Shown here: piece after piece, positions 3,070 through 55,868 of the stretch | Layout: every line of letters begins with the position of its first letter | Position numbering within the stretch: position 1 is the stretch's first letter | Assembly: GCA_951812955.1 (NCBI GenBank) | Contig: OX638340.1 | Location: 2,688,001 to 2,752,000, forward strand | Length of the DNA stretch: 64,000 nt | DNA from: an uncultured Gemmatimonadota bacterium | GTDB lineage: Bacteria; JAAXHH01 | Direction of reading: 5' to 3' | Notes under the pieces: model-generated | What the model saw: the letters and a program-made list of their open reading frames with translations, nothing else | Databases searched by the model: none | What the model was told of the DNA's origin: nothing | Translations under genes and position numbers: made by a program

Positions 3070-3206
3070 TACCTACAATATGTTGTGTGTAGTAGTGGAA
3101 AAAAGTACAACATGCTTGTCTAATAGGATTTATTTGGGATTTCACACCACAAACAACTATCTTATAGATACTTCCTCAATTCCGTATACCTATCCCCCTA
3201 GGGAGT

Positions 3207-3404: not shown

Positions 3405-3428
3405 ACAGTGTGACGCGGGAGCTATTCG

Positions 3429-5076: not shown

Positions 5077-5142
5077 CCCGAGGATCTCAGGTTTTTAGGG
5101 ACCGATCGTGGCTTGCGGGATAGCTGTGCTTGTTCTGAAGAC

Positions 5143-7545: not shown

Positions 7546-7671
7546 GGGTGATGCCGCCGCAGTGAGGAATGCTGCCGGGAAAACAGCCAGGGGTCCCTCA
7601 AGATACCAACGACACAGCCGGAATGTCCACCAGTTTGCGGTGCTGGAAGCCGCCGGGAGGCCAGGGCTCGC

Positions 7672-8778
7672 TTAAGGCGCCAGCCTGTTCCAGTGGACGT
7701 CCATGGCCGTTTCGGTACCCGCGTAGTACACCACCAGGACCGTGCCGTCGGGCAGGGCTTCCGCATAGGGCAGGCCGAAGGACCACACCGAGAAGCCCAG
7801 GGCGCCCTTGGGATCTTCCTTAGGCGCCTCGTGGGTATACAGGGTCACCTCGGTTTCCGGATCGAACGTCCCGTCGATGGAAGGCGCGACGCGGGCCTTG
7901 ATGGACTGGTCGTGGAAGCGGTCCACCCACGGCAGGACGATGCGTCCGTCCGGCAGCACCGCGGGATGGGCCGCCTGGTCGGTGACGCCGATGTCTTCCG
8001 GCGCGGACCAGGTTCGCCCGCCGTCGGAGCTGACGCGGCGGTGAATGTTCAGGTAGGATTCCGTTTCGGTGTTGTAGGTCCAGGCGAACGCACCGATTCT
8101 GCCGTCCGGCGCCACGGCCGACCGCAGATCCCAGTTGTAGATCAGGCCCGTCGGATCGAACCCGATGTTCACCGGTTCACCCCAGGTCCTTCCCCCGTCC
8201 GTGGAGTGAAATGCGACGACCCGCTGGTACCATTTCGAGGTGTCGAGGTAGTGCTTGTTGGTTTCGATGGTCATGACCAGGGCGCCGTCCGGAAGTTGCA
8301 TGATTGGATTGGTCAGGCTCGCCGGTCCAATCTCCTCCGGCATGGGTACCTCGCGCCACGCCGTCCAGGTTTTTCCCCCGTCCGCGGAGTCCGCCAGGAG
8401 GATGGACATGGGCACGCAGCCCTCGGTCTCCGGATTGAAGAGTCCCGGGGCGTCAGGATAGGTTTCGCGGTCGATCCACATTGATGCGGCGATGATCCGT
8501 CCGGGCGCCAGTTCAGTCAGGTAGACGATCTTGACCGTCCCCCGGACTCCGTGAAGCGTTGGGCTTCCGAAGGGGCGTTCGGGTGCGCTCCAGGTCTTTC
8601 CGAGATCGGAGGAGCGGCTGAGTTCCACCACTTCGTCCGCGCAGTCCTTCGTCGTGCCGCTGTGCCAGGTGGCGATCAGCGTGCCGTCGGTCTTGCTAAG
8701 GACTGAGGGGAACGTGAGATTGGCCCGGTCCGTGCCGGGCGTGCTGCGGCTGAGGACGCCGGAGTCGACGATGCGCAT
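7672..8778 (-). CDS. BNR/Asp-box repeat glycoside hydrolase, sialidase-like
   Basis: Four SxDxGxTW Asp-box motifs (SSDLGKTWS, SADGGKTWT, STDGGRTWG, SSDGGRTWS). Confidence 0.7.
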   Translation of the reverse strand: MRIVDSGVLSRSTPGTDRANLTFPSVLSKTDGTLIATWHSGTTKDCADEVVELSRSSDLGKTWSAPERPFGSPTLHGVRGTVKIVYLTELAPGRIIAASMWIDRETYPDAPGLFNPETEGCVPMSILLADSADGGKTWTAWREVPMPEEIGPASLTNPIMQLPDGALVMTIETNKHYLDTSKWYQRVVAFHSTDGGRTWGEPVNIGFDPTGLIYNWDLRSAVAPDGRIGAFAWTYNTETESYLNIHRRVSSDGGRTWSAPEDIGVTDQAAHPAVLPDGRIVLPWVDRFHDQSIKARVAPSIDGTFDPETEVTLYTHEAPKEDPKGALGFSVWSFGLPYAEALPDGTVLVVYYAGTETAMDVHWNRLAP

Positions 8779-8819
8779 GGTGGCTGGCCTTTCGAGATTG
8801 GTTGTTAAACCTTTTTCAG

Positions 8820-8866
8820 TTCGGATGTGCCTTCACGATTCGGATGTGCCTTCCATGTTCGGATCC
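8820..8866. repeat. Short tandem repeat (ttcggatgtgccttc x2 plus a partial third copy) upstream of the sialidase-like gene
   Basis: Direct reading of the sequence. Confidence 0.6.
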
Positions 8867-8891
8867 GGCAAGGATCCAATCCGGGTACCGA

Positions 8892-10883: not shown

Positions 10884-10951
10884 CTCATGAGAGGAGGATT
10901 GGGAAACCGCGGTCGAGCGCCACGTTTTCCATGTGGAGTTCCGTGTCCCCT

Positions 10952-12907
10952 TTAGAAGAACTGGAGTTCGTGTATTGACCCTCGAAAATACCAGAAGTCC
11001 ACCAGGATCGCAACGGCGGCGCCGAGGACATAGCCTACCATGATGCCGATCATCAGCGGCTGGACAGCCTGGTAGAGGCGTACACCGCCTACCCTGATCA
11101 GTATGGTTTTCAACAGCCAGGCCAGAAAGACGGGAAAGAATGCGTTGCGCGCGGGACCGCCGGCGGCCACCACGAAACCGATAGGCGAAATGGGCCACCA
11201 GCTGAAGTAATAGCGGGCAACGCTCATACCCGTGACCATGGCCATGCCCACGACCAGGAAGAACACCTCCGCACCCGAAATGGTGGTACTGTTCTGCATC
11301 CAGGTTATGATCAAGTTATAGAAACCGGGGTCTCCGGCGATATTGTTGTAGTAATTCGCCGCACCGCCCAGCCGGTATCCGGAATAGGCCGAAAAACCGA
11401 TGGCCGTAATCGAGCTGACGACGAAGGTGACCGATGCCCAGAAGAACAGGACCCGTCCGGAGACGCCGAGTATGGACTGCATCCGCGCGACGTGGGAGGG
11501 GATGATCATCGTAAAGGTCTTCCAGTTGCGTGCAAAAGCGCTTCCCAAGCCCAGGGCCGTCAGGTTCTGCGGCGACAGTGAGGCGGAGCCCAGCATGCCC
11601 ACAGTAAACTGGTGGGCGTTGATGGGCAGGTCCAGGAAGACCAGCCCCGATTCCGCCATCACGCGGCACAGTGCGAAGTAGAAGAGGAAAAGCAGGACGA
11701 GAAAGACGGCGATCACCGGGAAGGACATGCCGATCACGTGCAGCCACCAGGAGATATAGGCCATGCCGCAGACGCCCGTGACCAGGGCCGCCCGGTAGGA
11801 AATGAACTCGTCTTCGTCGCGCAGGTTCGTTTCGTGTCCCCGTACGTGGCGCCACACCATCGCCAGGTGCCGCCGCGCGATCCAGAAACCCCAGAGCGCG
11901 AAGGCGATCATGCCCCCGATGAACTGCACGGCGACCAGTCCGCCCGGTATGGCCGTACCCGAGGCTGCGACAACGCCGACCCGGGCCAGGATGCCCTGCT
12001 GTAGCGTATTGATGATCTGGAACAGCCACACGCTGAAAAGGATATCCACGTTGATGAAGTAGGAGAAGGCAAAGGTGAGGACGTTCATTCGGATTGGATG
12101 CGCCGGAAAAGCATGTCCGAAATTAACGCTGAGCACGGTGCTCGCGTCGACGGGAAAGGACGACCACTGGGTCCAGTATGATGCGGTGTTCCAGAGCATG
12201 ATGGAGAAGGTGACCACCGCGCCGGTGATGAACATGCGGTTTCGCATGATCGTCGGCAGGACGGCGTCCGGCTCATCCTTCGTTTCCGTCATGACGACCG
12301 GCGCCTGGACGAGGGGATAGGAAAGCCGCTCGTGCTCGACCCACTGCCTGCGCATCAGGATGACGAAGCAGATGCCCACGGCCAGGAGGCCGCCAAAGAA
12401 AGACAGCCACCAGAACGACGGAATGATCCAGGCCGCCCAGGGGATCGGCATGCTTTCTGGTAGGCCCCAGTAATAGTCCCGGTTCGCGTTCTGTTCGTTC
12501 GTGACGATGAGCCAGTCGGGCAGATAGGCGAAGAACATCTCGCGCCACTGGTTCTCGGGCGACGCGAAGTATTCCGCCGTGGCCATCACGTTCACGACGT
12601 AGTTGGACATGCCCCAGGTCGGCACCATGAAACCGACCCAGCCAAGTACGAAAACGAAGAGTACTTCTTTGTCCCGCAATCCCAATGACGGACGGATCGC
12701 CTTGACCAGCAGGTTGGGACCCAGGACACCCAGCAGGAAGGGAATCAGCAGGGCGAGATCTATGTGGGCGAAGGTAAGGTGCACATACCCCAGGTGGTAG
12801 TTGCTCGACACGGAGAAAAGATTGACGACGACGGCCAGGGCCAGGCCCGCCGCCACCGCCCGGGGCGTTACCACCTTCGAGGAGGTTCTTTGTTCCAGTT
12901 CGCTCAT
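10952..12907 (-). CDS. Uncharacterised polytopic membrane protein (651 aa), paralog A of a tandem pair
   Basis: At least 12 predicted TM segments. Conserved blocks (NANRDYYWGLP, FSYFINVDILFSVWLFQIINTL, YYFSWWPISPIGFVVAAGGP) are shared with the downstream paralog. Confidence 0.7.
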   Translation of the reverse strand: MSELEQRTSSKVVTPRAVAAGLALAVVVNLFSVSSNYHLGYVHLTFAHIDLALLIPFLLGVLGPNLLVKAIRPSLGLRDKEVLFVFVLGWVGFMVPTWGMSNYVVNVMATAEYFASPENQWREMFFAYLPDWLIVTNEQNANRDYYWGLPESMPIPWAAWIIPSFWWLSFFGGLLAVGICFVILMRRQWVEHERLSYPLVQAPVVMTETKDEPDAVLPTIMRNRMFITGAVVTFSIMLWNTASYWTQWSSFPVDASTVLSVNFGHAFPAHPIRMNVLTFAFSYFINVDILFSVWLFQIINTLQQGILARVGVVAASGTAIPGGLVAVQFIGGMIAFALWGFWIARRHLAMVWRHVRGHETNLRDEDEFISYRAALVTGVCGMAYISWWLHVIGMSFPVIAVFLVLLFLFYFALCRVMAESGLVFLDLPINAHQFTVGMLGSASLSPQNLTALGLGSAFARNWKTFTMIIPSHVARMQSILGVSGRVLFFWASVTFVVSSITAIGFSAYSGYRLGGAANYYNNIAGDPGFYNLIITWMQNSTTISGAEVFFLVVGMAMVTGMSVARYYFSWWPISPIGFVVAAGGPARNAFFPVFLAWLLKTILIRVGGVRLYQAVQPLMIGIMVGYVLGAAVAILVDFWYFRGSIHELQFF

Positions 12908-12997
12908 GCTCTATACGGCGCGCCGCGATCTGCGCATTGGTCGGTGCCGTGGCCGGCGCGTTCACCGGACGGCAAGTGGCCCATAACGGGTCCCGTT

Positions 12998-14953
12998 TCA
13001 AAAGGAATGGGGATTATGAACGGCTCCGGGAAAATACAGCAGATCGGCCAGGATAGCAATGGAAGCGCCAAGGACGTAGCCCACGAGGATGCCGATCATC
13101 AACGGCTGAACGGCATGGTATAGCCGCACGCCGCCTGCCCTGATCAGGATGGTTTTCAACAGCCAGGCGAGAAGGACCGGGAAGAAGGCGTTGCGGGGCG
13201 GACCGCCGGCCGCTACCACGAAGCCGATGGGTGAAATGGGCCACCAACTGAAGTAGTAACGGCATACAGTCATTCCCAGGACCATCGCCATGCCCGCGAT
13301 CAGAAAGAACACCTCGGAACCGGAAATCGTCGTGTTGTTCTTCATCCAGCTGATGATCAGGTCGTAGAATCCGGGGTTACCTGCGATATCAGCGTAGAAG
13401 TTCGACGCGCCGCCGAGCCGGTATCCGGAATAGGCTGTGAAGCCTACGGCGGAAATCGCGCTGAGGGAGAAGGCGACGGCGCTCCAGAAGAACAGTGTGC
13501 GCCCTTCGACGCCAATCACCGATCTCAGCCGCGCGACGTGGGACGGTATGATCATGGGAAAGGTCTTCCAGTTGCGCGCGAAAGCGCTTCCCAGGCCCAA
13601 CGCCGACAGGTTCCGGGGTGAAAGCGAAGCGGAGCCCAGCATGGCGACGGTAAACTGGTGGGCGTTAACGGGAAGGTCCAGGAAGACCAGTCCGGATTCC
13701 GCCATTACGCGGCAGAAGGCGAAGTAGAATAGGAACAGCACCGTCAGAAACGCGGCGATCACCGGAAAGGACATGCCCACGGCGTGCAACCACCACACGA
13801 TGTAGGCCATGCCGCACGCCCCGGTGATCACGGCCGTCCGGTAGGAGAAGAACTCGTCCTCGTCACGCAGGTTCGTGGCGCCTCCCAGCACATGGCGCCA
13901 CACAGTCCCCAGGTGCCGCCGCGCGATCCAGATCCCCCAGAGCGCGAAGGCGATCATCCCGCCGATGAACTGGACTGTGACCAGCCCTCCAGGTACGGCG
14001 GTTCCTGAATCTGCGATGATGCCGAGCCGGGCCAGGACGCCTTGCTCCAGCGTGTTGATGATCTGGAAGAGCCATACGCTGAACAGGATGTCCACGTTGA
14101 TGAAGTAGGAGAATGCGAAGGTAAGGACGTTCATGCGAATGATTTGAACCGGGAAGGCGCGGCCGATCTCGATATTGATCAGGAACTTCGTATCGATGGG
14201 AAAGGACGTCCATTGCGTCCAGTATGACACCGTGTTCCAGAGCATGAGGGAAAACGTGATGATAGCGCCGGTGATGAACAGCCGGTTGCGCATGATCGAC
14301 GGCAGGACCGAATCCGTTTCGTCGTCCGCATCCGTCATGACGACCGCCGTCTGCGCGAGGGGATAGGAAAGGCGCTCGTGCTCGGCCCATTGCCGGCGCA
14401 TCAGGACGACATAGCAGAGGCCGACGGCTAGCAGGCCGGCGAAAAAGGAAAACCACCAGAACACGGGAATGATCCACGCCGCCCAGGGAATCGGAGCGCC
14501 GGCAGGAAGACCCCAGTAGTAGTCCCGGTTCGCGTTCTGTTCGTTCCTGATAATTACCCAGTCCGGGAGAAAGGGGAAAATCAGTTCGCGCCACTGGTTC
14601 TCGGGCGTGGCGTAGTATTCCGCCGTGGCCATCATGCCGACCAGGTAGTTCGACATGCCATAGGTGGGTACCATGAAACCGATCCAGCCCAGGACGAAGA
14701 CGAACAGGAGTTCCTTGTTTCGCAGTCCCCACGACGGATTAATCGCCTTGACCAGGATATTGGGGCCAAGTACGCCCAGGAAGAAAGGGATCAGCAGGCC
14801 GAGGTCGATATGGGCGAAGGTGAGATGGGTAAACCCGACGAGATAACTGGTCGACACCGACAGGATGTTGACCGCGACGGCCAGCGCCAGACCCATGATT
14901 ATGGCCCGGGGGGTCGCTGCGCGCGGGCTGGACGGGTCGACCGTATCGGTCAT
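12998..14953 (-). CDS. Uncharacterised polytopic membrane protein (651 aa), paralog B
   Basis: Collinear with paralog A over its full length at roughly 70% identity. Confidence 0.7.
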   Translation of the reverse strand: MTDTVDPSSPRAATPRAIIMGLALAVAVNILSVSTSYLVGFTHLTFAHIDLGLLIPFFLGVLGPNILVKAINPSWGLRNKELLFVFVLGWIGFMVPTYGMSNYLVGMMATAEYYATPENQWRELIFPFLPDWVIIRNEQNANRDYYWGLPAGAPIPWAAWIIPVFWWFSFFAGLLAVGLCYVVLMRRQWAEHERLSYPLAQTAVVMTDADDETDSVLPSIMRNRLFITGAIITFSLMLWNTVSYWTQWTSFPIDTKFLINIEIGRAFPVQIIRMNVLTFAFSYFINVDILFSVWLFQIINTLEQGVLARLGIIADSGTAVPGGLVTVQFIGGMIAFALWGIWIARRHLGTVWRHVLGGATNLRDEDEFFSYRTAVITGACGMAYIVWWLHAVGMSFPVIAAFLTVLFLFYFAFCRVMAESGLVFLDLPVNAHQFTVAMLGSASLSPRNLSALGLGSAFARNWKTFPMIIPSHVARLRSVIGVEGRTLFFWSAVAFSLSAISAVGFTAYSGYRLGGASNFYADIAGNPGFYDLIISWMKNNTTISGSEVFFLIAGMAMVLGMTVCRYYFSWWPISPIGFVVAAGGPPRNAFFPVLLAWLLKTILIRAGGVRLYHAVQPLMIGILVGYVLGASIAILADLLYFPGAVHNPHSF

Positions 14954-16443
14954 AGGCTGTACAGGGAGCTGTACTTATCGTGTACGTAAGCCAGGAAGTA
15001 ATCCGCCGATAGCACTTCGCCGGTGACGTGCTGCACGAGTTCACCGGCGCGGTAGGTCATGCCGGGCCGATGGATGCGGTCCCTGAGCCAGTCTCGAAGG
15101 GGAAGCAATTCTCCGCGTGCGATTCGTTCCGACAGGTCGGGTATTTCCCGCTCGGCGGCGCGGTAGAACTGGGCGGCGTAGAGATTCCCAAGGGTATAGG
15201 TGGGGAAATACCCGAAACTTCCGTGCGACCAGTGGATGTCCTGCAGCACGCCGTCCCGGTCGTCCGGTGGCTCGATGCCGAGAAAGGCCTTCATATTCTC
15301 GTTCCATACCGCCGACAGATCGCCCGCCGCGTATTCGTCCGTGAACAGTCCGCGCTCTATTTCGAACCGGAGCAGGATGTGGAGATTGTAGGTGATTTCG
15401 TCCGCTTCCACCCGGATGAGCGAGGGTTTCACCTCGTTAACCGCGGCGTAGACTTCTTCTTCGCTCACGTCCGCCGAGTTTTCAGGGAATATCGCCGAGA
15501 ATTCGGGGAAGAAGTGTTGCCAGAATGCCCTGCTTCGACCGACCATGTTTTCCCACATACGGGATTGGGATTCGTGTATGCCGAGGGACACCGAAGCCCC
15601 GCGGGGCGTGCCCTCGTTCTCCGGGTCGTGTCCCTGTTCATAGAGACCGTGCCCCGCCTCGTGGATCACGCCGTAGAAGGATTGCATGGGGAGCGTCTCG
15701 GAATACCGGGTCGTCATTCGGACGTCGTTGACGCCCATGTGCGTGCAGAATGGATGGGGAGAGATATCCAGGCGGCCTGCCTCGAAATCGAAGCCCATGC
15801 GTTCGGCGGCCATGACGCCCATGCGCCGCTGGTCGTCGACGGGGTAGTTACGCTCCAGGAAATCGGTGCGAGGCTTGACGCCAGAGTCGGCGATGCGCTG
15901 CACCAGGTCCACGAGGGGACCACGTATAGAATCGAAGACCGCCGCGGTCTCTTTCGTCGAAGCGTAAGGCTCGTATTCATCGAGCAGCGCGTCGTAGGGT
16001 TCGTCCTCGTATCCCACCGCCTCGGCGACCTCGCGCTGGAGGGCGACCAGCTTGTCGACCCACGGGGCGAAAGCCGGGAAATCATCCTCCTGCCGGGCTT
16101 TGATCCACACACCGATGGCCGCCGAACTCGTTTCCGCCAGGTCCTTGACCAGGCCGACGGGGATCTTTACCGCCCGGTCGCTGAAACGGGAAATCTCGCG
16201 GACGTTGACCTCTTCGTCGGCCGTCAGCGATTCGGAACGGGCCCCGTCCAGCGCGCCGCGCATTTCATCGGAGGTGATCCGTTCGTGGGCCATGCCTGAG
16301 AGCGTGGCGAGTTGCCGTCCCCTGCTGGCCGCGCCCTTGGGGGGCATGTAGGTTTCCTGGTCCCACCCCATCAGGGCCAGGGCGGCGTACAGGTCACTTA
16401 TCTCCCGATAGATCTCCATTACCCGATCATAGTGCTTTGGCAC
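14950..16443 (-). CDS. M32 metallocarboxypeptidase (carboxypeptidase Taq family)
   Basis: HEAGHGLYEQG (HExxH), HPF and IRVEADE motifs. Length is typical. Confidence 0.85.
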   Translation of the reverse strand: MPKHYDRVMEIYREISDLYAALALMGWDQETYMPPKGAASRGRQLATLSGMAHERITSDEMRGALDGARSESLTADEEVNVREISRFSDRAVKIPVGLVKDLAETSSAAIGVWIKARQEDDFPAFAPWVDKLVALQREVAEAVGYEDEPYDALLDEYEPYASTKETAAVFDSIRGPLVDLVQRIADSGVKPRTDFLERNYPVDDQRRMGVMAAERMGFDFEAGRLDISPHPFCTHMGVNDVRMTTRYSETLPMQSFYGVIHEAGHGLYEQGHDPENEGTPRGASVSLGIHESQSRMWENMVGRSRAFWQHFFPEFSAIFPENSADVSEEEVYAAVNEVKPSLIRVEADEITYNLHILLRFEIERGLFTDEYAAGDLSAVWNENMKAFLGIEPPDDRDGVLQDIHWSHGSFGYFPTYTLGNLYAAQFYRAAEREIPDLSERIARGELLPLRDWLRDRIHRPGMTYRAGELVQHVTGEVLSADYFLAYVHDKYSSLYSL

Positions 16444-16523
16444 GGCGTATATCTCCCTTGTCTGGAACCGCTCTGGCCGTTTCTCGTCTGTCAGGAGGCT
16501 TCCGTGAGCGGTCTCGTTTCTCT

Positions 16524-17819
16524 CTAGTTGCCCAGGACCGGTTGGACGCGCAATTCAAGCAGGCCATGGGCCCTTCGAAGCACTTGTTCCACCTGGCCGG
16601 GTTGATCTCCTCGTGCGAATATGAAACCGGGGTAACTGGCGCCTTCGGGAAGCGGAGTCAGCAGGTCGCCTTCCTTTGCGGTGATTACCACGTCTTCCAC
16701 GCCCGGAACCTTCTTCGCCGTTTCGACACCGTCGTATCGCAGAAACTGTCCGCTTTCCGGAACGGGCAGCATCATCACGCCCGCGGCCTTCGTCTGCCCG
16801 GTACTTCGCCCGAAGTCCGTCGCGTCGAGACCTGTACCGCTCGTGTCCTGTCCCAGGGCGTGACGCAGGATGAGTTCCTCCAGGGACAGCCCGATTCCGA
16901 ACTCCAGGACGCGCGAGCAAAGCCCCCCGATGGATCGGCCGGCGATTTCAATGATCCTGGCCTCGCCGTGGTGGATGCGCAGTTCGGCGTGGACCGGACT
17001 CTCCGACAGGCCCACGGCCGTGGAAGCCCTTTGTACGGCTTCGGCTACGACCTTTTGCGTCTTGCCGGGCAAGCGCGAAGGCGTTATGTAAATCGACTCC
17101 TCGAAATAGGGCCCCTCCAGCGGATCGGGCTTGTCGAACAGCGCGAGCACGCGCAGCAGTCCGCCGGTCAGTAATCCCTCCAGGGCTACCTCTGCGCCTG
17201 GTATGTAGGATTCCACCATGATGCGTCGGGCGTCGGGATCGAGGCTCGGCGGCCTGTCCGTCGCGCTGTCGAGTAGGTGGCTGATTCTCCGGAATGCTTC
17301 TATAAAGCCTGATGGCGAGTCGGCCCGTATTACGCCCCGGCTGCCCGATAGCAGGACGGGTTTGAGCACACAGGGGTAAGGTTGCTCCAGCGCGATTTCC
17401 TCGACCGGGACCGACAGGTCGAACAGGGCGAAATACGGGTTCCATACCCCCGCGGACGAGAGCATTTCACGCATGCGGTACTTGTTGCGCGCGGCGACGG
17501 CCGCTTCGGGCGTGTTGTGCGGAAGGTCGAGGATCTGACATGCCCTGGCGGCGATCTCGGTGGTATAATCGTCGACTGGTACGATGGCATCGAGGGTATG
17601 ATCACGGGCGTAGGCCACGATTTCCTCCACGGCCTGCGACACGTATCTCAGCCGAAGCGACAGCGGGACGTCCCAAGCTTCCGCCAGCACGTGGCAGAAG
17701 TCCGAACCCACGACGACTTCAATGCCCATACGCCGCGCCGCAGCCAGAAACGGATCCGCGCGATAGGTCGTCGTCGGCATCAGGAGCAGTAGTTTTTTGG
17801 ACCGGGTCTCTGCTGGCAT
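16524..17819 (-). CDS. ATP-grasp domain protein (carboxylate-amine ligase-like)
   Basis: A pre-ATP-grasp fold followed by ATP-grasp fold features (VLKP, ESYIPG, EINPR-like). Confidence 0.65.
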   Translation of the reverse strand: MPAETRSKKLLLLMPTTTYRADPFLAAARRMGIEVVVGSDFCHVLAEAWDVPLSLRLRYVSQAVEEIVAYARDHTLDAIVPVDDYTTEIAARACQILDLPHNTPEAAVAARNKYRMREMLSSAGVWNPYFALFDLSVPVEEIALEQPYPCVLKPVLLSGSRGVIRADSPSGFIEAFRRISHLLDSATDRPPSLDPDARRIMVESYIPGAEVALEGLLTGGLLRVLALFDKPDPLEGPYFEESIYITPSRLPGKTQKVVAEAVQRASTAVGLSESPVHAELRIHHGEARIIEIAGRSIGGLCSRVLEFGIGLSLEELILRHALGQDTSGTGLDATDFGRSTGQTKAAGVMMLPVPESGQFLRYDGVETAKKVPGVEDVVITAKEGDLLTPLPEGASYPGFIFARGDQPGQVEQVLRRAHGLLELRVQPVLGN

Positions 17820-19274: not shown

Positions 19275-20651
19275 ATGCTGGTAATCGTCAGCGACCTGCA
19301 TTTGACGGACGGCACATCCGGCCGGACCATCAATGCGCATGCCTTTCGGTTGTTCGCCGACCGGGTTCGGGACATGGCCTTCGACGCCTCCTGGCGGCGC
19401 GGGGGTTCCTACCGGCCGGTCGAGCGCGTCGACATCCTCCTTCTGGGAGATATCCTGGACGTCATTCGCTCGACCCGGTGGCTTGAGACCGATCGCGGGA
19501 CGCGTCCCTGGAGCGACCCCGCGGACGTCCGGCTCGCCCGGAAGGTGAATGAAGTAACCGATGAGATCCTGAAGCACAATGCGCACGCGCTGTCTCATCT
19601 CGGGAACCTGGCGCGTCCCGGAGGCCTCCTGCTTTCTCCGCCCGGGGGAGCGAATGGGAACCCGAAGCATTCCGAGCCCGGCCTGCCGGTACGGATCGGC
19701 ATCCACTACATGGTCGGCAACCACGACTGGTTCTATCATTTGCCCGGCGCGGACTACCACCCTCTGAGGAGGAAGGTCTCGGACGCCCTGGGGCTGGAGA
19801 ACGACCCTGACGCGCCCTTCCCCCACGATCAGGAAGAATCGGCCCGACTCGACGGCATACTTCGTGATCACGGGGTCATCGCCCGCCATGGAGACGTCTT
19901 CGATCCCTTCAATTACTCCGGATCGAGGAACGAGCCGTCGCTGGGGGACGGCGTCGTCATAGAATTGGTGATCCGCTTCCACCGGGAGGTCCTCGCCCGC
20001 CTGGGATCACGAATGCCCCGGTCGTTCATCGACGGACTGCGGGAGATGGACAATGTCCGCCCCCTGGCAGCCGTTCCCGTCTGGATCGACGGCCTGTTAC
20101 GTAGTCACGGGGTGCCAGGAAGAGAGGCTCGCAAGGTAAAAGACACCTGGAACGACCTGGTCGACGCCTTCCTCGATCTGGATTTCATCCGGGGGCGGGA
20201 CGCTTACTTGAATCCCTTCGACAGCGTGGACCGGCTGGAATACGCGCTGAGGATCACGCGAGACATTCCGCTAGTCGCGGCGAGCGCGCTGGGCGCGTGG
20301 TGGAACGACCTGGCGAGTGGTCCAGGCGGCACGGACGAATCCTATCATGCCCACGCTGCCGGGGAAAAGGCGGTGCTGGACAGGGAGGCACGGCACGTGG
20401 TATACGGCCATACCCACCACTACGAAATCGTGCCCCTCGACGCCATGACGCGGGACGGCCGGCGATTCGAACAGGTCTACTTCAACGCGGGCACGTGGCG
20501 CAGGGTACATCGGCTCGCTCGTTCGTCCCGGCGCGGCCGGTCCTTTGTAGCCTACGACGTCATGACCTTCCTGACATTTTTCAAGGACGACGAACGCATG
20601 GGCCGCCCGTTCGCCTGCTGGTCGGGGACGCTGGGCGAGGCGCGCCGGTAG
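19275..20651 (+). CDS. Calcineurin-like metallophosphoesterase (458 aa) with large insertions between catalytic motifs
   Basis: Catalytic motifs IVSDLHLTDG (DxH), LLLGDILD (GDxxD), GNHD and VVYGHTHH are in canonical order. ATG lies 13 nt after the upstream stop. Confidence 0.75.
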   Translation: MLVIVSDLHLTDGTSGRTINAHAFRLFADRVRDMAFDASWRRGGSYRPVERVDILLLGDILDVIRSTRWLETDRGTRPWSDPADVRLARKVNEVTDEILKHNAHALSHLGNLARPGGLLLSPPGGANGNPKHSEPGLPVRIGIHYMVGNHDWFYHLPGADYHPLRRKVSDALGLENDPDAPFPHDQEESARLDGILRDHGVIARHGDVFDPFNYSGSRNEPSLGDGVVIELVIRFHREVLARLGSRMPRSFIDGLREMDNVRPLAAVPVWIDGLLRSHGVPGREARKVKDTWNDLVDAFLDLDFIRGRDAYLNPFDSVDRLEYALRITRDIPLVAASALGAWWNDLASGPGGTDESYHAHAAGEKAVLDREARHVVYGHTHHYEIVPLDAMTRDGRRFEQVYFNAGTWRRVHRLARSSRRGRSFVAYDVMTFLTFFKDDERMGRPFACWSGTLGEARR

Positions 20652-21300
20652 GACGGGATATGAGTATCAGAACCGCAATCCGAATCAAAGTCAACTGAGA
20701 TTGAACGACATAAACGAGTTACGGTCAGCAAAGAATAGTTTACCCTAACTGCTGATATTCGTACATTTTGTTGACGAGCATTTGACTCCAAGTTCTAACG
20801 ATACTTCGCATGCGATGCGTGTTTTTCAAACCAAAGATCGTGTTGGAAGTGTTATACTGAGTGAGGATACGTGTGAATTGCCGACGAGATTCCTGACAAA
20901 AACTTAATAGAATTTGGCCACAAAGGAGACTGTTATGTCTGAGGATAGACATACTTCCAGAGAGCAGAACGATATAGAAATCAAGAGTGTAAACGAAGAT
21001 TCGCCAGGAATCGAGACTATGCCCGATATTACCCCGGAGATGATTTCGCCAAATCCTCCCCAAAGCAACAGTGAGAACAACCAGCACGATCAAACAGGGT
21101 CATCAAATGTAGAAAGTGACTAAGATGTCGAGTTCAGTTCAGGCGATATAGAGTGGGTGCAATTGCACAAGAAAAAGTAACAAATAAAACTGTATTCAAC
21201 CGCTTGATTAGAATCCTTGTTAAGACTGGCAGCAGACCCTTTTCACTTGACTTGAAAGACCTCTCGCCCTACCATGGTGCAGTTGTTTAGGGAGATATCG
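20652..21300. other. AT-rich segment between the metallophosphoesterase operon and the tRNA genes
   Basis: Compositional shift to roughly 40-45% GC. Confidence 0.6.
20935..21123 (+). CDS. Small acidic, S/N/Q/P-rich hypothetical protein (62 aa)
   Basis: ATG preceded by AAAGGAG at 6 nt spacing. Composition is atypical for this genome. The track ORF begins at an upstream TTG (20914). Confidence 0.35.
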   Translation: MSEDRHTSREQNDIEIKSVNEDSPGIETMPDITPEMISPNPPQSNSENNQHDQTGSSNVESD

Positions 21301-21309
21301 GGAAGGTAT

Positions 21310-21396
21310 GCCGGGGTGGTGGAATTGGTAGACACAGGAGACTTAAAATCTCCCGGACCTCAATAGTCCGTGCCGGTTCGAGTCCGGCCCTCGGCA
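21310..21396 (+). tRNA. tRNA-Leu (anticodon UAA), type II with a long variable arm
   Basis: The cloverleaf was read manually. It has a GCCGGGG acceptor, an anticodon loop cuUAAaa, a long variable stem-loop and a GTTCGAGTC T-loop. Confidence 0.85.
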
Positions 21397-21435
21397 TTCG
21401 GGGTCGTGAACAAACTGGTGAATGCTGGATATGCA

Positions 21436-21509
21436 GGGCGCTTAGCTCAGATGGTTAGAGTGCCACGTTGACATCGTGGAGGTCAGTGGTTCGATCCCAC
21501 TAGCGCCCA
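21436..21509 (+). tRNA. tRNA-Val (anticodon GAC)
   Basis: Acceptor GGGCGCT/AGCGCCC, anticodon stem CCACG/CGTGG with loop TTGACAT, and T-loop GTTCGATCC. Confidence 0.8.
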
Positions 21510-21522
21510 TTCCGTTCCGAAC

Positions 21523-21553
21523 CAAGCAAATGCCCGGCCCTGGTCGCTCCGGC
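21523..21553 (+). terminator. Rho-independent terminator after the tRNA pair (CCCGGCC-11 nt loop-GGCCGGG followed by TTTCTT)
   Basis: Inverted repeat plus T-tract read directly. Confidence 0.5.
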
Positions 21554-21597
21554 CGGGTTTCTTAATTCCCCCTGCTCCTAAACCAGTTTGCTCCAGC

Positions 21598-22647
21598 ATG
21601 AAAATCACGGATATCAAGGCCGTCTACCCGGCATGGAAGAAAAAGGGGTCGGGCGCCTGGCAAGAGTATTACTGGCAGATCGTGGTCCGGGTGGAGACGG
21701 ACACCGGCGTCCTGGGGTACGGGTACGGCGGAGGCGGAGAACCCGGCAAACTGATCGTCAACGGTCATCTGCGCGATGCGCTGATTGGCAGGACGATCGG
21801 CAGCGTGGATGATATTCGCGACACCTGGGACCATCTCTACTTCAAATCCCTGCCGTACGGCCGCAATGGCATTGTGATCATGGCCCTCAGCGGAATCGAT
21901 CTGGCCCTGTGGGACCTGCTCGGTAAAACCGAAGGCAAGCCCGTATACGAGCTGATCGGGGGATTGAAGAAGGACAAGGTCCGTGCCTACGCGACAGGGG
22001 GCGACCCTGCACGGGTCCGCGACCTGGGCTATACGGCCGTAAAGCGCTCGCACAAGTGGCGGTCTGACGCCGACTACGACGTAGCCGCGGTCCAGGCGGC
22101 CCGGTGCAGGGAGCTGTTCGGTCCGGACGCGCTGCTCATGTTCGACTGCTACATGTCCTGGGATGCCTGGGTAGCCCTGCGGATGCGCGAAATCCTGGCC
22201 GAATACGAACCCTACTGGTTCGAGGATCTCATCACCCCCGACCATCTGGACGAACTGGCCGAACTCAGGCCGCGGCTGGCGCCTGTTCTACTGGCCGGCG
22301 GCGAGCACGATTTCTCCCACCATGCGTTCCGCGCCATTGCCCGCGCCGGCGCCCTGGACCTGTGGCAGCCCGATATCACCTGGTGCGGTGGAATAACGGC
22401 GGGGTTGCGCATCCTGGACCTGGCCAGATCGCAAGGGGTGCCTGTATGTCCCCATCGTGGGGGCGAAATCTGGGGGCTGCACCTAATCGCCGCGACGGAT
22501 TGCATGGATCTGGCGGAGACCCACCCGGATAGGCGGAACGATATGGACGGCTCGGTGCTGCTCGACGAGCCCGTGGTATCCGGCGGCGAGATCGCACCGG
22601 CTGACCGTCCGGGGTTCGGCGTCACGCTGAAACCGGCGTATTGCTAG
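21598..22647 (+). CDS. Enolase-superfamily enzyme (mandelate racemase/muconate lactonizing enzyme-like, probably an acid-sugar dehydratase)
   Basis: N-terminal capping domain followed by a TIM barrel. The conserved acid/base and metal-ligand segments are in place (GIDLALWDLLGK, FDCY, EDL, GEHD, WCGGIT). Confidence 0.8.
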   Translation: MKITDIKAVYPAWKKKGSGAWQEYYWQIVVRVETDTGVLGYGYGGGGEPGKLIVNGHLRDALIGRTIGSVDDIRDTWDHLYFKSLPYGRNGIVIMALSGIDLALWDLLGKTEGKPVYELIGGLKKDKVRAYATGGDPARVRDLGYTAVKRSHKWRSDADYDVAAVQAARCRELFGPDALLMFDCYMSWDAWVALRMREILAEYEPYWFEDLITPDHLDELAELRPRLAPVLLAGGEHDFSHHAFRAIARAGALDLWQPDITWCGGITAGLRILDLARSQGVPVCPHRGGEIWGLHLIAATDCMDLAETHPDRRNDMDGSVLLDEPVVSGGEIAPADRPGFGVTLKPAYC

Positions 22648-51563: not shown

Positions 51564-52404
51564 CTCCCAGCAGGTTGTTCCAGCATTTCCACCGTATCTG
51601 GCGTTCCTTGTAGTGATCGCTCTGCCCGACGCCGATCGGGTTGCCGAAAGACAGGACGTTCTTGGGGTCTTCCCGTTTCCCGCCCCAGGCGGTGGGTACG
51701 TTCATTACGTCGGGATCGTGGTTCCAGGTCGGCGCCTTGTTGTCCCGGACCCTTCTGAACAGGAACTTGATCATGTGGCGCTTGACCGGCGTGCGATTGG
51801 CCGCGGTGCCGTGCCAGAGGTCGTAGTGGGTCAGGGCAAAGGTCCCGGCCTTTAACACCATGGGCACCTGGCCGCGGATGTTGGTATAGGTGGCCATGCG
51901 GTCCGTCGGCGCGTTGCGGAACTGCGTGCCCGGGACGATGATGGTCGGACCCATCTCCGGTGTGATGTCGGTGGGGTAAAACAGCCCGAGCAGCCGGTCG
52001 ATACGCGTGTCCCGACTGTTGGTGCTGTCCTGGTGCCAGGACATGTGTCCGGTGTGCGGCTGCTTGCAATGCCAGTGCCGGTGTCCCATCACTTCGTAAT
52101 CCTCACCGAGCAGGCTGGCGAGCGCGCTTTTCACGGCGGGATGCTCGATCACCTGCCACAGGTCGGGGACGACTTCCGCGATGGCGTCGCCTGGATTGTA
52201 GTCCAGGCCGTCCAGCTGGCCGGCCATGCGCTCGTTGAGTCCCTCGGGAAGATCGAGTTCGAGCAGATGATAGCCGTTTACGATAAACTCGACCATCTCC
52301 AAATCGGTGAGCAGATGGGACATGTCTGTTCCATTTTCTCGCCGTTCCGCGTCGGCGGGCAGCGATTCCGCCCTCGACTCCGCTTGCAGTTGGTTCTTAT
52401 CCAT
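51541..52404 (-). CDS. Phytanoyl-CoA dioxygenase (PhyH) family oxygenase
   Basis: HQD...H triad (MSWHQDSTNS ... THYDLWHGTA). ATG at 52404 with GGAGGAGG upstream. Confidence 0.7.
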   Translation of the reverse strand: MDKNQLQAESRAESLPADAERRENGTDMSHLLTDLEMVEFIVNGYHLLELDLPEGLNERMAGQLDGLDYNPGDAIAEVVPDLWQVIEHPAVKSALASLLGEDYEVMGHRHWHCKQPHTGHMSWHQDSTNSRDTRIDRLLGLFYPTDITPEMGPTIIVPGTQFRNAPTDRMATYTNIRGQVPMVLKAGTFALTHYDLWHGTAANRTPVKRHMIKFLFRRVRDNKAPTWNHDPDVMNVPTAWGGKREDPKNVLSFGNPIGVGQSDHYKERQIRWKCWNNLLGVADAADA

Positions 52405-52696
52405 CCCGGACCTCCTCCAGTTTCTGCAAGATGAACTCGTATCCCACGACGTCCAGGTCCCTGTCGTCGATGGGCGCCTGTAGATGGGGAAACTGCACGA
52501 TCTGCCAGCCGTCGACGAGCGCGTCGTGCACGGTGTTGTAAGGCCAATCGGAGACATCCGCCGTGATTTCCGCCCTGTAGTCCCTGACCGGTTCTACAGG
52601 CGTATATCCCAGGATATCGGAGAAAACGCTGGGCGTCCGCGCATGCAGGTACAGCAGCCGCTGCCTGACGCCGGGATTTGAAGAGGAAGAAGACAT
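52397..52696 (-). CDS. Hypothetical small protein (about 100 aa), first gene of the PhyH operon
   Basis: ATG at 52696. No known motif. Confidence 0.3.
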   Translation of the reverse strand: MSSSSSNPGVRQRLLYLHARTPSVFSDILGYTPVEPVRDYRAEITADVSDWPYNTVHDALVDGWQIVQFPHLQAPIDDRDLDVVGYEFILQKLEEVRDG

Positions 52697-52719
52697 ATCT
52701 ATGACGCGCTCTGCGCAAG

Positions 52720-53870
52720 ACGTTTGGATCGCGTTACGTTCATATTGAAAAGAATAAGATAAGCGTCCGGGGTCTCCAGTCCAAGAGAATCGCATACGGG
52801 GATTAGACATCCAGCAAAGGAGTCAAGGCGCCACCCCGTTGGGGCCTGAAATTCACCTCAGAGGGAGACTACGATTGTTAATTGACAAACCGAATAATCC
52901 ATATTGGAATTAATCCATAAAATGATATATTTGGAAAATGAACCGAAGTCCGACATCATCCTGTCTTACGCTTGGAAAACAAAGCAATAACGGAATCCAT
53001 GTCACGCACCTTGATGGCGGATCTTCCACACCAGGTCCATGGCGTTCCGTTTCAGTCAAGACAGGGAAAGATGCTTTTATAGACAGGTACAGATGCTCTT
53101 TAACGAACTGAGGAGAGGCAAATGGATGCACCGAGTGGAAGGCGCGAGACACGTTACGGGATACCAGAGGCTGATCAAGTGATATTCAATCGCCATTACA
53201 TTATTGGTTATTCCTACTATTTTCGCCAAGCCAAGTGGGCACTTGAAATTGTCGATCGTGATCATACCGGACTGGATCGGGCCGATAACTTCCGTCCCGA
53301 TTACCGCGTGCCGGAGATGTTTCGCGCAGACCTCGCAGATTACACGGGATCCGGTTATGATAGAGGGCATCTGGTGGCAAGCGCCAATCAAAGGGAAGTG
53401 GAATTGCAAAACAGCGAAACCTTCTTGCTTTCCAATATGTCTCCACAAGTTCCGCGTTTTAACCGCGGAGTGTGGAAGGAACTTGAAGGCGCGGTAAGAG
53501 CGTTGAATGAACAGGAAAAAATACTGGAGACCTACGTCATTTGCGGTCCTCTTTTTCACTTTGACAAGGCGACCGAATTGATCGGGGCCGAAGATGACAA
53601 CGGCGTCACGCTCCCCATTCCCCACGCATACTTCAAGTCCATCCTGACCGAAAACAACCGGGGAACGTTGGATTTCTGGTCTTTCATCCTGCCCAACGAA
53701 GATATTGATAGGCCGCTTAAATCATTTCTCGTTCCGACGAGAAAAATCGAACAATATGCGGGCATCTACATCTGGAACCGCCTGCAAGGCACGTCCATAG
53801 CACGAAAAAAGAGAGTACAGAAAAGACGTATGTGGAGATTCTAAGTCAGCATCGATGTTGAATCTTGCGA
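52720..53870. other. AT-rich islet carrying a single plus-strand nuclease gene between two minus-strand host genes
   Basis: Compositional shift to roughly 45% GC. Confidence 0.6.
53122..53844 (+). CDS. DNA/RNA non-specific endonuclease (Serratia NucA family, beta-beta-alpha-Me) with no signal peptide
   Basis: YDRGHLVASANQ (DRGH active site), NMSPQVPRFNRGVWKELE (Asn metal-ligand region) and GPLF. There is no N-terminal hydrophobic signal. Confidence 0.75.
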   Translation: MDAPSGRRETRYGIPEADQVIFNRHYIIGYSYYFRQAKWALEIVDRDHTGLDRADNFRPDYRVPEMFRADLADYTGSGYDRGHLVASANQREVELQNSETFLLSNMSPQVPRFNRGVWKELEGAVRALNEQEKILETYVICGPLFHFDKATELIGAEDDNGVTLPIPHAYFKSILTENNRGTLDFWSFILPNEDIDRPLKSFLVPTRKIEQYAGIYIWNRLQGTSIARKKRVQKRRMWRF

Positions 53871-53935
53871 GGCTGTCTGTGCAATCTATTCATCGCTTAT
53901 TGCTTTTCGCCTCAAGCGATTCACCACACCCTCCG

Positions 53936-54670
53936 TCACCCTCCCCTACCAGGCGGCCAGGTAGCGAAGTACTCCGGCGCCCAGCGCCTGGCGAGGTGGA
54001 AATCGTGTCGATGACAGGCCGCCAGGGGCGGCGCCGTCTCCGCGTCGATCCAGGCCTCGGCGCCTGCGAGTCCGGGAAATTCCAGGATCCAGGCGAACTC
54101 GCCGTGGGTACCGGCGCCCATCATTTGGAAGACCTCGCCATGTAAGAGTCCGTGGTCCAGGCTTACTTTCCGCATTCGACGCCATCGCGCTTCGTCGTGC
54201 GCCCCGGGGTCATCAAGACCCGCGCCTCGATGACGTCCGTCGAAGGCCAGCAGGACGATCGAAGCAGGGTTGGCTGAAAGGGGCGGGATCGCCCTCGGAT
54301 CTGCGCCCGGGACCACGAGGGGCTCGGGCTTTCGAGGCATCCAGGCCAGGGCCTCCGGCCGCCAGCGGCGGGCAAGGGTATAGTCGTAGAAGCCGTAGCG
54401 TCCGTATGGGGGTTCCGTTTCGGCCGACATCCAGGCCTCGGCGCCGGCGAGGTCCGGGAATTCGATGGTCCAGAACCGCTCCCAGTTCCCTCGGGGTCCC
54501 AATAGCCGATAACCGTGGATTCCGATCAGGCCGTAGCGTTCGGAGACCGAAAGCATCAGGTCGACGTGCAGACGCTCGTAGTCGGTCCGCCGGGTCTCGT
54601 CGAGTTGATGCCATTCCGGCAGGCGACCACCGCGAAAGAGTATGAACACGCTATCGTCCCGTCCGGTCAT
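53936..54670 (-). CDS. Hypothetical protein with an internal tandem domain duplication
   Basis: Two repeats of about 110 aa ending in FPDLAGAEAWMSAETEPP...LARRW and FPGLAGAEAWIDAETAPP...LARRW. ATG at 54670. Confidence 0.5.
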   Translation of the reverse strand: MTGRDDSVFILFRGGRLPEWHQLDETRRTDYERLHVDLMLSVSERYGLIGIHGYRLLGPRGNWERFWTIEFPDLAGAEAWMSAETEPPYGRYGFYDYTLARRWRPEALAWMPRKPEPLVVPGADPRAIPPLSANPASIVLLAFDGRHRGAGLDDPGAHDEARWRRMRKVSLDHGLLHGEVFQMMGAGTHGEFAWILEFPGLAGAEAWIDAETAPPLAACHRHDFHLARRWAPEYFATWPPGRGG

Positions 54671-54794
54671 GAAAGCCTTCCTCTCGATTTGGCTTAAGAA
54701 CGGCGACAGTCCGCGGTTATCCCTCGGACCGGTCGGTACGTCAATAGTAAAACACGCGGACCGTCCTTCCCGCATCCACTGGAACGATGTCCCG

Positions 54795-55868
54795 TCAGCC
54801 ACCCATATCGGAGAACGTCCCGGCCTCCGGCAGTCCCGCCACGGTGCAGTTCACGCCTGCGACACGATTCGCGAGACGGGTTGCCCGGGCGGGGTCCTTC
54901 GAAGCCAGGTACTCGGTTACGAAGCCGGCGGCAAAGGCGTCCCCGCAGCCGGTGGTGTCGACCACGTCACGGACCGGCTCCGAAGGGATGGCAAAGGCCT
55001 TCGATTCGCGGTCTTCCCGGTAAACCGTGACAGGACCGAGGGGCCCCCGGGTAATAACGCATACCGAGGGACCGAGAGAAATCACGGACCGTCCGAAGGC
55101 GATGAAATCATCGACCGATTCCAACGTGCCGCCTGGTCCGCCTGGTCCAGTCGCATCAAACCGTCCGCGCAGTCCCCCCGGTTCGCCCGCATCCAAGGAT
55201 CCGCCCGTTCCGCCCGTTCCGCCTGTTTCCCCCGGTTCGCCCGCATCCAGCGATCCGCCCGTTCCGCCTGGCGCCGCCGCTTCGTTACCTGTACCGGCCA
55301 GCAGACGAGCCTCCACTTCGTTCATCTGAACGACGTCGAACATCTCGATCCATCGCCGCCAGTCCGTGGGTGCCCGTCTTCGCCGGTAGCCCTCCGCGTC
55401 GATACCCAGACAGAGGTTGTGCACATCCAGGTAACGCAACCCGGAGGCGCTGCCCCGTATCGTCTCCATGGTCTTCAGGCTGATATCGTCGCCTACGATG
55501 AAATTCACCAGCAGGGCGTCGAGATCAAGGAAAGGTTCGATCTGTTCGAGGGGAATGGGTCCGACATGGTTGGTCAGCTGCTCGACTTTCTCCATATTTT
55601 CGTCGTAACGTATCCGGTTTCGGCTGGTACCCGATGGGGAAAGGGAGATTCCGCGGGTGCTCACGGCGGGACGTGGATCCAGGATGGCGCGCATGGCGCC
55701 GTAACGCTCCGCTCCGATCCGGCTGATGGGATACAGTTCGTCCCCTTCGCTCACGAGGTCTGCCATTACGGTGGTGTTGTACAATATGCCGCCGAGGTCT
55801 TGAATCTGACGGCCGCCGGACATGAAGATGGTGTCGTGGTTGATGAGGCCTATGATGCCAACGCGCAT
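54795..55868 (-). CDS. PfkB-family carbohydrate kinase with a Gly-rich repeat insertion
   Basis: DTTGCGDAFAAGF anion-hole/GD motif and ribokinase-like layout, plus a low-complexity insertion of about 50 aa. Confidence 0.75.
   Translation of the reverse strand: MRVGIIGLINHDTIFMSGGRQIQDLGGILYNTTVMADLVSEGDELYPISRIGAERYGAMRAILDPRPAVSTRGISLSPSGTSRNRIRYDENMEKVEQLTNHVGPIPLEQIEPFLDLDALLVNFIVGDDISLKTMETIRGSASGLRYLDVHNLCLGIDAEGYRRRRAPTDWRRWIEMFDVVQMNEVEARLLAGTGNEAAAPGGTGGSLDAGEPGETGGTGGTGGSLDAGEPGGLRGRFDATGPGGPGGTLESVDDFIAFGRSVISLGPSVCVITRGPLGPVTVYREDRESKAFAIPSEPVRDVVDTTGCGDAFAAGFVTEYLASKDPARATRLANRVAGVNCTVAGLPEAGTFSDMGG
55125..55290. repeat. Tandem repeat (about 54-bp units, 2 copies) encoding GGTGGSLDAGEPG x2 inside the PfkB kinase gene
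   Basis: Repeated ccccggttcgcccgcatccaRSgatccgcccgttccgcc read directly. Confidence 0.7.

Follow-up and report, generated by a model that had tools for sequence, protein, structure and literature searches.

A single-gene, low-GC islet in an uncultured Gemmatimonadota bacterium encodes a 240-residue nuclease of the endonuclease G (EndoG) branch that carries no export leader and has no conserved partner gene. The gene lies in a 64,000-nucleotide stretch of contig OX638340.1 (positions 2,688,001 to 2,752,000; hereafter the window), at a site that is polymorphic among close relatives; its active site is intact and it evolves under purifying selection. The best overall explanation, which we hold with middling confidence, is that the islet is a cassette of a leaderless EndoG clade and that its product would be an intracellular nuclease deployed under particular conditions. 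Within this well-known enzyme family, the clade without leader or partner is a variant yet to be characterised, and literature searches returned no published description of a leaderless EndoG clade.

The 240-residue protein matches the Pfam family PF01223 (Endonuclease_NS) over residues 11-221 with 149.3 bits against a cutoff of 23 (E 1.6e-43). This profile and our alignments confirm the DRGH/Asn catalytic core that a preliminary description of the stretch had read from the translation: G82 and H83 never vary among 110 aligned sequences, and conservation of D80, R81 and N105 is 90% or higher. A sequence search of the PDB returned Caenorhabditis elegans CPS-6 and the Drosophila, mouse and human EndoG proteins at E values of 1e-29 to 1e-31 (best 9e-32), with weaker matches to ExoG and Anabaena NucA (approximately 1e-18) and to the Serratia nuclease (2e-13). 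An AlphaFold model built from the 110-sequence alignment reached a predicted local distance difference test score (pLDDT) of 94.5 and a predicted template modelling score of 0.92, superseding a run on a shallow alignment of 22 near-identical sequences (pLDDT 55). Compared with the PDB by Foldseek, the predicted model is closest to EndoG/CPS-6 (TM score 0.81, root mean square deviation 2.2-2.5 Å, 33-35% identity), followed by ExoG, NucA and the Serratia nuclease; the TM score is also 0.81 for the last two. The label "Serratia-type" given in the preliminary description is thus valid at the superfamily level only; judged by sequence and predicted fold, the nuclease is an EndoG-type member of the PF01223 (ββα-Me) superfamily. 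No NCBIfam model names the protein, and it matches PHROG 14168, annotated "nuclease". Its N-terminus (MDAPSGRRETRYGIP...) aligns with the start of the crystallised mature EndoG/CPS-6 constructs, from chain residue 8-21, so that the catalytic domain makes up the entire protein. It contains one cysteine (C141), which is also the median number for the clade, and can therefore form no disulfides.

An in-frame TAA six codons upstream of the ATG excludes an N-terminal extension from any earlier start, and with it a signal peptide gained through the alternative upstream start that the preliminary description had considered. The absence of a hydrophobic N-terminus, reported there for the single protein, extends to the family. 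Across 79 family open reading frames (ORFs), the Kyte-Doolittle mean of 11 residues over the first 45 residues has a maximum of at most 1.75 and a median of 0.62. In 68 of the 79 loci an extension of the ORF by more than five residues is impossible, and the few N-terminal extensions possible in the clade start at TTG or GTG and are not hydrophobic. Hydropathy of the 79 ORFs revealed no signal peptide, twin-arginine (Tat) motif with h-region, lipobox or transmembrane segment across the clade. By contrast, 75% of the out-clade relatives at 30-40% identity (n=87) have an N-terminal hydrophobic segment with a median leader of 50 residues, and signal peptides and lipoboxes can be clearly recognised among them; the clade has therefore lost the export signal.

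Non-classical export, one of the options raised in the preliminary description, would have the enzyme leave the cell in outer-membrane vesicles, by lysis or through a C-terminal signal such as the basic ...RKMW tail, and break down DNA outside the cell as a nutrient or to remodel biofilms. Among out-clade relatives, the nearest are indeed secreted or lipoprotein forms, secretion is the usual protection for PF01223 enzymes (PMC2790893), and the conserved basic tail with K230 and W238 otherwise lacks an explanation. Against these points stand the uniformly leaderless clade, the single cysteine with no disulfide stabilisation, and the existence of members that are fused to cytoplasmic TIR domains or encoded in phage replication modules. 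Secretion-system genes are likewise not recurrent among 149 immediate neighbours of the nuclease genes. We found no positive evidence for this route and consider it improbable. That the nuclease works in the cytoplasm appears likely to us.

The clade and its gene neighbourhoods

Leaderless relatives of the window protein are numerous and widely scattered. A word-indexed protein search returned 2374 homologs, the best 120 of which are 221-255 residues long and 67-100% identical. In a scan of one genome per species (approximately 185,000), at least 568 genomes encode a relative; the best 80 of these are 54-86% identical to the window protein and come mostly from marine or sediment samples. The phyla represented among the best 80 include Latescibacterota, Zixibacteria, Gamma-, Alpha- and Zetaproteobacteria, Desulfobacterota, Nitrospinota, Bacteroidota, Chloroflexota, Planctomycetota and Verrucomicrobiota, together with one Halobacteriota metagenome-assembled genome. 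The copy in this archaeal assembly (L002, contig JAXHTN010000030.1) is 73% identical to the window protein and reflects either a cross-domain transfer or a binning error. Cultured carriers are known in Winogradskyella, Polaribacter porphyrae, Sneathiella limimaris and Desulfopila; carriers such as Winogradskyella spp., W. haliclonae among them, P. porphyrae and S. limimaris make the clade experimentally tractable. A cross-phylum alignment of 22 sequences contains 94 invariant positions, among them the basic C-terminal tail ending ...RKMW, with K230 and W238. Out of 1.84 billion representatives of 50%-identity clusters, only 47 score at or below 1e-30, which shows a compact clade set well apart from the 9362 remaining relatives. 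Collections of isolated phages and plasmids hold relatives only at a distance (<36% identity). The window protein is accordingly not the orphan that had been suspected: in its clade, which numbers thousands of proteins, the leaderless and partnerless state is the norm.

Partner genes were sought by blastp clustering of all ORFs of at least 50 residues from 80 genome loci and the window (81 loci). Shadow ORFs within the nuclease gene aside, no conserved partner was found in the 81 loci, the top cluster being present in 11 of them at variable distance. The direct neighbours of the nuclease differ in size and orientation; upstream gaps typically exceed 100 bp and many downstream genes are convergent, which fits a monocistronic nuclease gene. 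A Pfam census of the 149 immediate neighbours yielded 172 families, none recurring more than three times. For linked genes in the window, none of the 24 ORFs of at least 30 residues in and around the islet has a Pfam match at E<=0.05, and hence none matches NuiA. The lack of a linked inhibitor, noted in the preliminary description for one locus, is borne out by these analyses.

Individual candidates for a partner were also discarded. A 57-residue ORF (52938-53111) that ends 10 nt before the ATG is not conserved in loci L082 and L084 and has no Pfam match. The flanking 244-residue and 99-residue proteins, which have no Pfam, NCBIfam or PDB match, are both present in strains without the nuclease. 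A free-standing homing endonuclease does not fit the loci either: the neighbours differ in almost every locus and there is no single conserved target gene.

In the closest non-syntenic copy (L001, Latescibacterota), a 76-residue DUF433 protein is encoded on the same strand 130 nt downstream of the nuclease (6847-7077). DUF433 proteins are often antitoxin-like. This gene could be cited for a toxin with an unlinked or unrecognisably divergent immunity protein, or for an orphan polymorphic-toxin or toxin-antitoxin cassette, as could the form of the islet itself, a single gene of foreign GC in a variable site. NucA-type domains do occur as polymorphic toxin tips (PMC3482391). Nevertheless, the window protein consists of the catalytic domain only and bears no N-terminal trafficking, PAAR, Rhs or filamentous domain, no small downstream ORF is conserved in the 81 loci, and the islet ORFs match neither NuiA nor any other Pfam family. 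Toxin tips are normally fast-evolving, whereas the clade is exceptionally conserved. These points speak against a polymorphic toxin or toxin-immunity cassette, and the broader toxin explanation is in our view very improbable.

Several members of the clade lie in intracellular or conflict-related contexts. The nearest 50%-cluster representatives include three fusion proteins, in which the nuclease is joined to a TIR domain (P0124 and P0127) or to a caspase domain (P0126). The gene for P0127 adjoins an AAA_13 ATPase gene on a 7.9-Mb contig, and that for P0126 adjoins Cas10/RAMP (type III CRISPR) genes and a DDE transposase. The nuclease copy in locus L083 (86% identical) ends 3 bp before a leucine-rich repeat (LRR)-peptidase M66 gene, within a same-strand run (1799-12125) of giant metallopeptidase-WD40, LRR-peptidase M66 and WD40-Big_1 genes; the arrangement resembles the peptidase-NucA conflict systems (Kaur et al. 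2020). In L087, a 70%-identical copy follows a SIR2-STAND-TPR gene at a distance of 207 bp. Searches by tblastn with TIR, caspase, STAND, AAA_13, WD40 and LRR queries against the 80 genome loci found essentially nothing. In P0124 (418 residues), DRGH is replaced by VRGY with loss of the catalytic His and Asp; judging from these substitutions, its nuclease domain may be a nucleic-acid sensor and not a cutter.

Ten IMG/VR contigs (L088-L097) from a marine phage lineage with a GC content of 0.33-0.37 encode nucleases 47-52% identical to the window protein. In these phage contigs the DNA polymerase III alpha gene is split, and its two halves enclose a gene for an RNase T-type proofreading exonuclease followed by the nuclease gene, a replication-module setting in which the enzyme must act inside the cell. 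In the phage locus (for example, L088 4990-10356), some contigs also have a SET-domain gene between the polymerase halves. Genes for a sigma-70-like factor and a GT4 "conflict" glycosyltransferase are located downstream in this lineage.

A polymorphic site and the history of the gene

The islet has a GC content of 0.48 and the nuclease gene 0.49, with 0.54 at third codon positions (GC3); neighbouring genes range from 0.56 to 0.65 (GC3 0.66-0.82), the flanks have 0.61-0.65, and the mean of the whole window is 0.61. Scored against sliding windows, the 1.2-kb interval reaches z = -3.8; two further low-GC troughs occur in the 64 kb. In a closely related locus with an empty site (L081), both flanks are 94-97% identical in nucleotides to those of the window. 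The start codon of the 99-residue gene (52696) and the stop codon of the 244-residue gene (53935/53936) mark the exact points where homology ends, and blastn finds 134 unrelated bp in place of the 1238 bp of the window, with no islet remnants inside this spacer. Composition, ORFs and this comparison together agree with the earlier picture of an AT-rich single-gene insert lying in opposite orientation between two minus-strand genes.

A third allele of 647 bp (L108 4724-5370; L109 3007-3653), unrelated to the other two, is present in two relatives whose genes from the 99-residue protein to the ceramidase are 96-97% protein-identical to those of the window. It encodes a protein of approximately 85 residues with one hydrophobic segment (membrane-anchored) and a coiled-coil-like tail. 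In both relatives the 244-residue gene is only 82% identical as against 96-97% for the other flank, which suggests a recombination breakpoint at the site. More distant Gemmatimonadota (L084-L086) have flanks 79-87% identical to the window; there, too, the nuclease (83.7% nucleotide identity) occupies this site, its orientation unchanged. Locus L082 has it at the same site with 90% nucleotide identity. Since distant relatives are occupied while close relatives are empty or carry another allele, the cassette is older than this genome and was lost or replaced in the close relatives. The preliminary description had proposed a horizontal insert, and the foreign composition and the absence from L081 favour that part of the proposal; the insert is neither fresh nor private, as the distant Gemmatimonadota carry the nuclease at the same site. 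Homologs in general are not uniformly located at this site with host-like GC. The DNA shared with L001 comprises the coding sequence with approximately 25 bp on either side only. No convincing terminal repeats or target duplications of a transposon, insertion sequence or integron cassette were recognised, attC sites not having been searched for with a dedicated model.

The ratio of nonsynonymous to synonymous substitution rates (dN/dS) of the nuclease is 0.09-0.13 against four homologs; the gene is therefore functional and under strong purifying selection. An inactive relic, or a horizontally acquired gene in decay, might share its low GC and its absence from the closest relative, yet the selection analysis effectively refutes this explanation, alone among the rivals, and the intact ORF, the retention of all invariant and catalytic residues and the good ribosome-binding site contradict it as well. 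The dS to the syntenic copy in L084 is 0.83, compared with 0.32-0.41 for the left-flank genes, and is lower for copies in unrelated contexts (0.56 for L001, 0.57 for L083). These values indicate that the cassette has been exchanged between lineages. Across the 81 loci, the GC of the gene tracks that of its flanks (r = 0.91, slope 0.72), which points to long residence for most copies. The copy in the window is an outlier on the low side, with a residual z of -2.3 and the largest deficit of all loci (-0.136); its GC3 of 0.54 compares with approximately 0.72 predicted from the family trend. This lack of adjustment to the host indicates a horizontal origin.

Possible role and comparison with known systems

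Secretion, compartmentalisation and inhibitors are the standard protections against PF01223 nucleases (PMC2790893). A clade of thousands of leaderless, partnerless EndoG-like enzymes fits none of the three. Taken from sequence and model, the nuclease would be an active, Mg-dependent, sugar-non-specific ββα-Me enzyme of the EndoG branch, reduced to the catalytic domain. The missing leader and the missing linked inhibitor would be ancestral traits of the whole clade, whose members come from bacteria, a few archaeal metagenome-assembled genomes and a single phage lineage, and the window gene a single-gene cassette with its own promoter region, retained by purifying selection in a hypervariable hotspot. 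The enzyme would then most likely serve as an intracellular, conditionally deployed degrader of nucleic acids, whether foreign DNA or RNA or, when the cell is infected or stressed, its own, with parallels in the TIR- and caspase-fused members, the peptidase-repeat gene clusters and the phage replication-module copies. Self-protection would rely on tight expression control, an intrinsic substrate or ionic preference or an unlinked factor, and not on export or an adjacent immunity protein. That the nuclease is a conditionally deployed effector of conflict or cell death, and not a salvage enzyme, is a tentative proposition to which we give somewhat less than an even chance.

Several results weigh against an effector role. 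The flanks of the window gene itself form a metabolic operon, and most of the 149 neighbours in the clade are ordinary metabolic genes. PADLOC 2.0 has no match for the nuclease or its three neighbours in the window, and for the 149 neighbours it gives sporadic matches, with one or two proteins for each of the PtuB, TIR, mads and PDC-S11 models. The 55-86% identity across phyla and the host-tracking GC look like those of a stable cellular enzyme, not of an arms-race gene. The toxin or defence effector suggested in the preliminary description consequently has indirect support, from the TIR and caspase fusions beside AAA_13 or type III CRISPR genes, and on the other side neither a PADLOC match nor an immunity gene.

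Much of this would suit an intracellular housekeeping or salvage nuclease that recycles nucleotides and phosphorus in starvation or takes part in replication or repair processing, with low activity in vivo on the intact chromosome and no part in conflict. Strong purifying selection together with extreme cross-phylum conservation, the long residence suggested by gene GC following host GC in most genomes, the mostly metabolic or housekeeping neighbours, the nucleotide-metabolism context of the phage copies beside polymerase and exonuclease genes and the mainly marine and sediment carriers are all in keeping with such a function. It accounts poorly for the patchy distribution (at least 568 of approximately 185,000 species genomes), for presence and absence differing between near-identical strains, for the fusions to TIR and caspase domains beside AAA_13 ATPase or type III CRISPR genes, and for the window copy with its composition unadjusted to the host. 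We regard salvage as a minority possibility, rather unlikely as it stands.

Mitochondrial EndoG (human, mouse, CPS-6, Drosophila) shares the DRGH and SNMSPQ motifs with the window protein, which begins almost exactly at the mature EndoG start. EndoG also acts as a cell-death nuclease; it is reported to prefer single-stranded and 5-hydroxymethylcytosine-containing substrates and to be inhibited at physiological salt. Mitochondria keep EndoG in the intermembrane space, and Drosophila has the inhibitor EndoGI in addition (PMC2790893), whereas the window protein has neither a targeting presequence nor a sequestering compartment. It further differs in its conserved basic C-terminal tail and in being prokaryotic, patchy in distribution and horizontally mobile. 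A more far-reaching idea is that the clade represents an inhibitor-free intracellular immune or cell-death nuclease, a free-living counterpart of the apoptotic role of EndoG. Host DNA would be spared by discrimination for modified, single-stranded or damaged substrates, by ionic inhibition or by infection-only expression, and the one-gene cassette would spread across phyla into hotspots; as a whole we consider this unlikely. Knowing how cells tolerate or unleash the enzyme would test for a prokaryotic antecedent of the cell-death role of EndoG, and might also provide a nuclease of practical use or a small defence module made of one gene. For the window itself the meaning is more modest: the gene is accessory and lies in a hotspot of recombination on a Gemmatimonadota chromosome.

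The two bacterial nucleases best known from this superfamily offer less close comparisons. Anabaena NucA has the PF01223 fold in common with the window protein at a structure-based identity of 23%, and with its dedicated cytosolic inhibitor NuiA it is the bacterial precedent for shielding the cytoplasm from such a nuclease. NucA is secreted, however, and the window protein has neither leader nor conserved partner. The Serratia marcescens nuclease, similar in superfamily and catalytic motif, is more distant than EndoG; it has a signal peptide and needs disulfide bonds that are formed on secretion (PMC2790893), in contrast to the leaderless window protein with its one cysteine.

Among the effector domains listed for prokaryotic conflict systems are NucA/EndoG-like endonucleases (PMC8195603, PMC7159879). 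The effectors described by Kaur, Burroughs, Iyer and Aravind (2020, 2021) resemble the present family in the use of an intracellular nuclease domain, and clade members with TIR or caspase fusions or beside peptidase-WD40/LRR, STAND and CRISPR genes extend the likeness. The window gene and most of the clade nevertheless stand alone, with no trypsin-like peptidase, effector-associated domain or STAND protein nearby. The NucA-peptidase system (Kaur et al. 2020), in which a NucA domain is fused to trypsin-like peptidases or encoded in an operon with them, has been described mostly from alphaproteobacterial operons; no peptidase adjoins the window gene. Type IV (modification-dependent) restriction nucleases are analogous only, being stand-alone, partnerless and patchy and occurring in variable spots; they need no immunity gene, as host DNA is not a substrate. 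Their fold family is unrelated, and the window protein has no modification-reading domain.

Expression signals, flanking genes and other features

The features of the islet and its flanks are collected in Table 1. The ribosome-binding site lies in approximately 25 nt of 5' leader that are common to L001, L083 and the window. The candidate promoter, in the AT-rich upstream region, also aligns in L082; it is a consensus match, and promoter-like sites are no more frequent here than in shuffled sequence. The direct repeats are a possible operator and are not conserved in L084. An Rfam scan of the 400 bp upstream of the nuclease gave no significant riboswitch or other RNA element. Downstream, the spacer between the convergent stops has modest hairpin potential (minimum free energy -24.9 kcal/mol, z -1.9) and contains no canonical terminators.

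Table 1. Coordinates in the window of the nuclease gene, the islet and the adjoining genes
Feature	Position	Strand	Basis or remark
Left flank, 99-residue protein	52397..52696	-	Heads a run that goes on with PhyH, sugar-phosphate isomerase-like and ceramidase genes
Low-GC allele-specific islet, 1238 bp, between the 99-residue start codon and the 244-residue stop codon	52697..53934		blastn against L081
Islet left end	52697..52820		blastn; homologous to occupied-site L084-L086, not to L081/L108
Candidate sigma-70-like promoter, TTGGAA-16-TATATT with TG extension	52904..52931	+	Consensus match only
Two 20-nt direct repeats, AGACAGGGAAAGATGCTTTT / AGACAGGTACAGATGCTCTT, 22-nt spacing, just 5' of the ribosome-binding site	53059..53100	+	Repeat search
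In-frame TAA, six codons 5' of the ATG	53101..53103	+	Read directly from the sequence
Shine-Dalgarno-like GAGGAG, 6 nt 5' of the ATG	53110..53115	+	Sequence
Nuclease coding sequence, 240 residues	53122..53844	+	Leaderless EndoG-clade DNA/RNA non-specific endonuclease; start codon ATG
Catalytic DRGH (D80-R81-G82-H83)	53359-53370	+	Present in the nuclease
Mg-binding Asn105 (N105)	53434-53436	+	Present in the nuclease
Basic C-terminal tail of the nuclease	ends ...KRRMWRF	+	Part of the nuclease
Spacer, 91 bp, between the convergent stops of the nuclease and 244-residue genes	53845..53935		Folding
Right flank, 244-residue protein with internal duplication	53936..54670	-	Gene present in relatives with or without the nuclease

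The left end of the islet is probably the promoter and 5' leader of the minus-strand operon that begins with the 99-residue and PhyH genes. A blastn match between L084 (3571-4003) and the window (52386-52820) has 83% identity over its whole length, and a separate run gave 77% over its islet part (approximately 52729-52820). Since homology to L081 ends at the ATG at 52696, the left neighbour starts there and not at 52810; a 137-residue ORF reaching 52810 is an over-extension of the 99-residue gene into the islet. A 288-residue ORF up to 54802 over-extends the 244-residue gene in the same manner.

On the far side of the 244-residue gene, L081 has a segment of approximately 6.5 kb (11098-17626, between the pfkB kinase and 244-residue genes) that is absent from the window (54698-54771) and encodes an 844-residue TPR protein and a 1189-residue protein without a Pfam match. 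With the nuclease site, this leaves the 244-residue gene flanked by variable regions on both sides. Midway along its product, the pfkB-family kinase gene itself (54795-55868, minus strand) encodes a Gly/Pro-rich low-complexity repeat (…GTGGSLDAGEPGETGGTGGTGGSLDAGEPGG…; window 55050-55250), and the PfkB profile is matched by the C-terminal part of the kinase only.

Both other low-GC troughs lie far from the nuclease. The islet at 2700-4600 has the lowest GC in the window (approximately 0.46, z = -4.3) and includes an ORF (3429-4433, plus strand) for a 334-residue ClpP-like, SDH-type serine proteinase (PF01972, E 8e-19). The trough at 20300-21900 contains tRNA-Leu(taa) (21309-21397) and tRNA-Val(gac) (21436-21509); tRNA genes are common integration targets.

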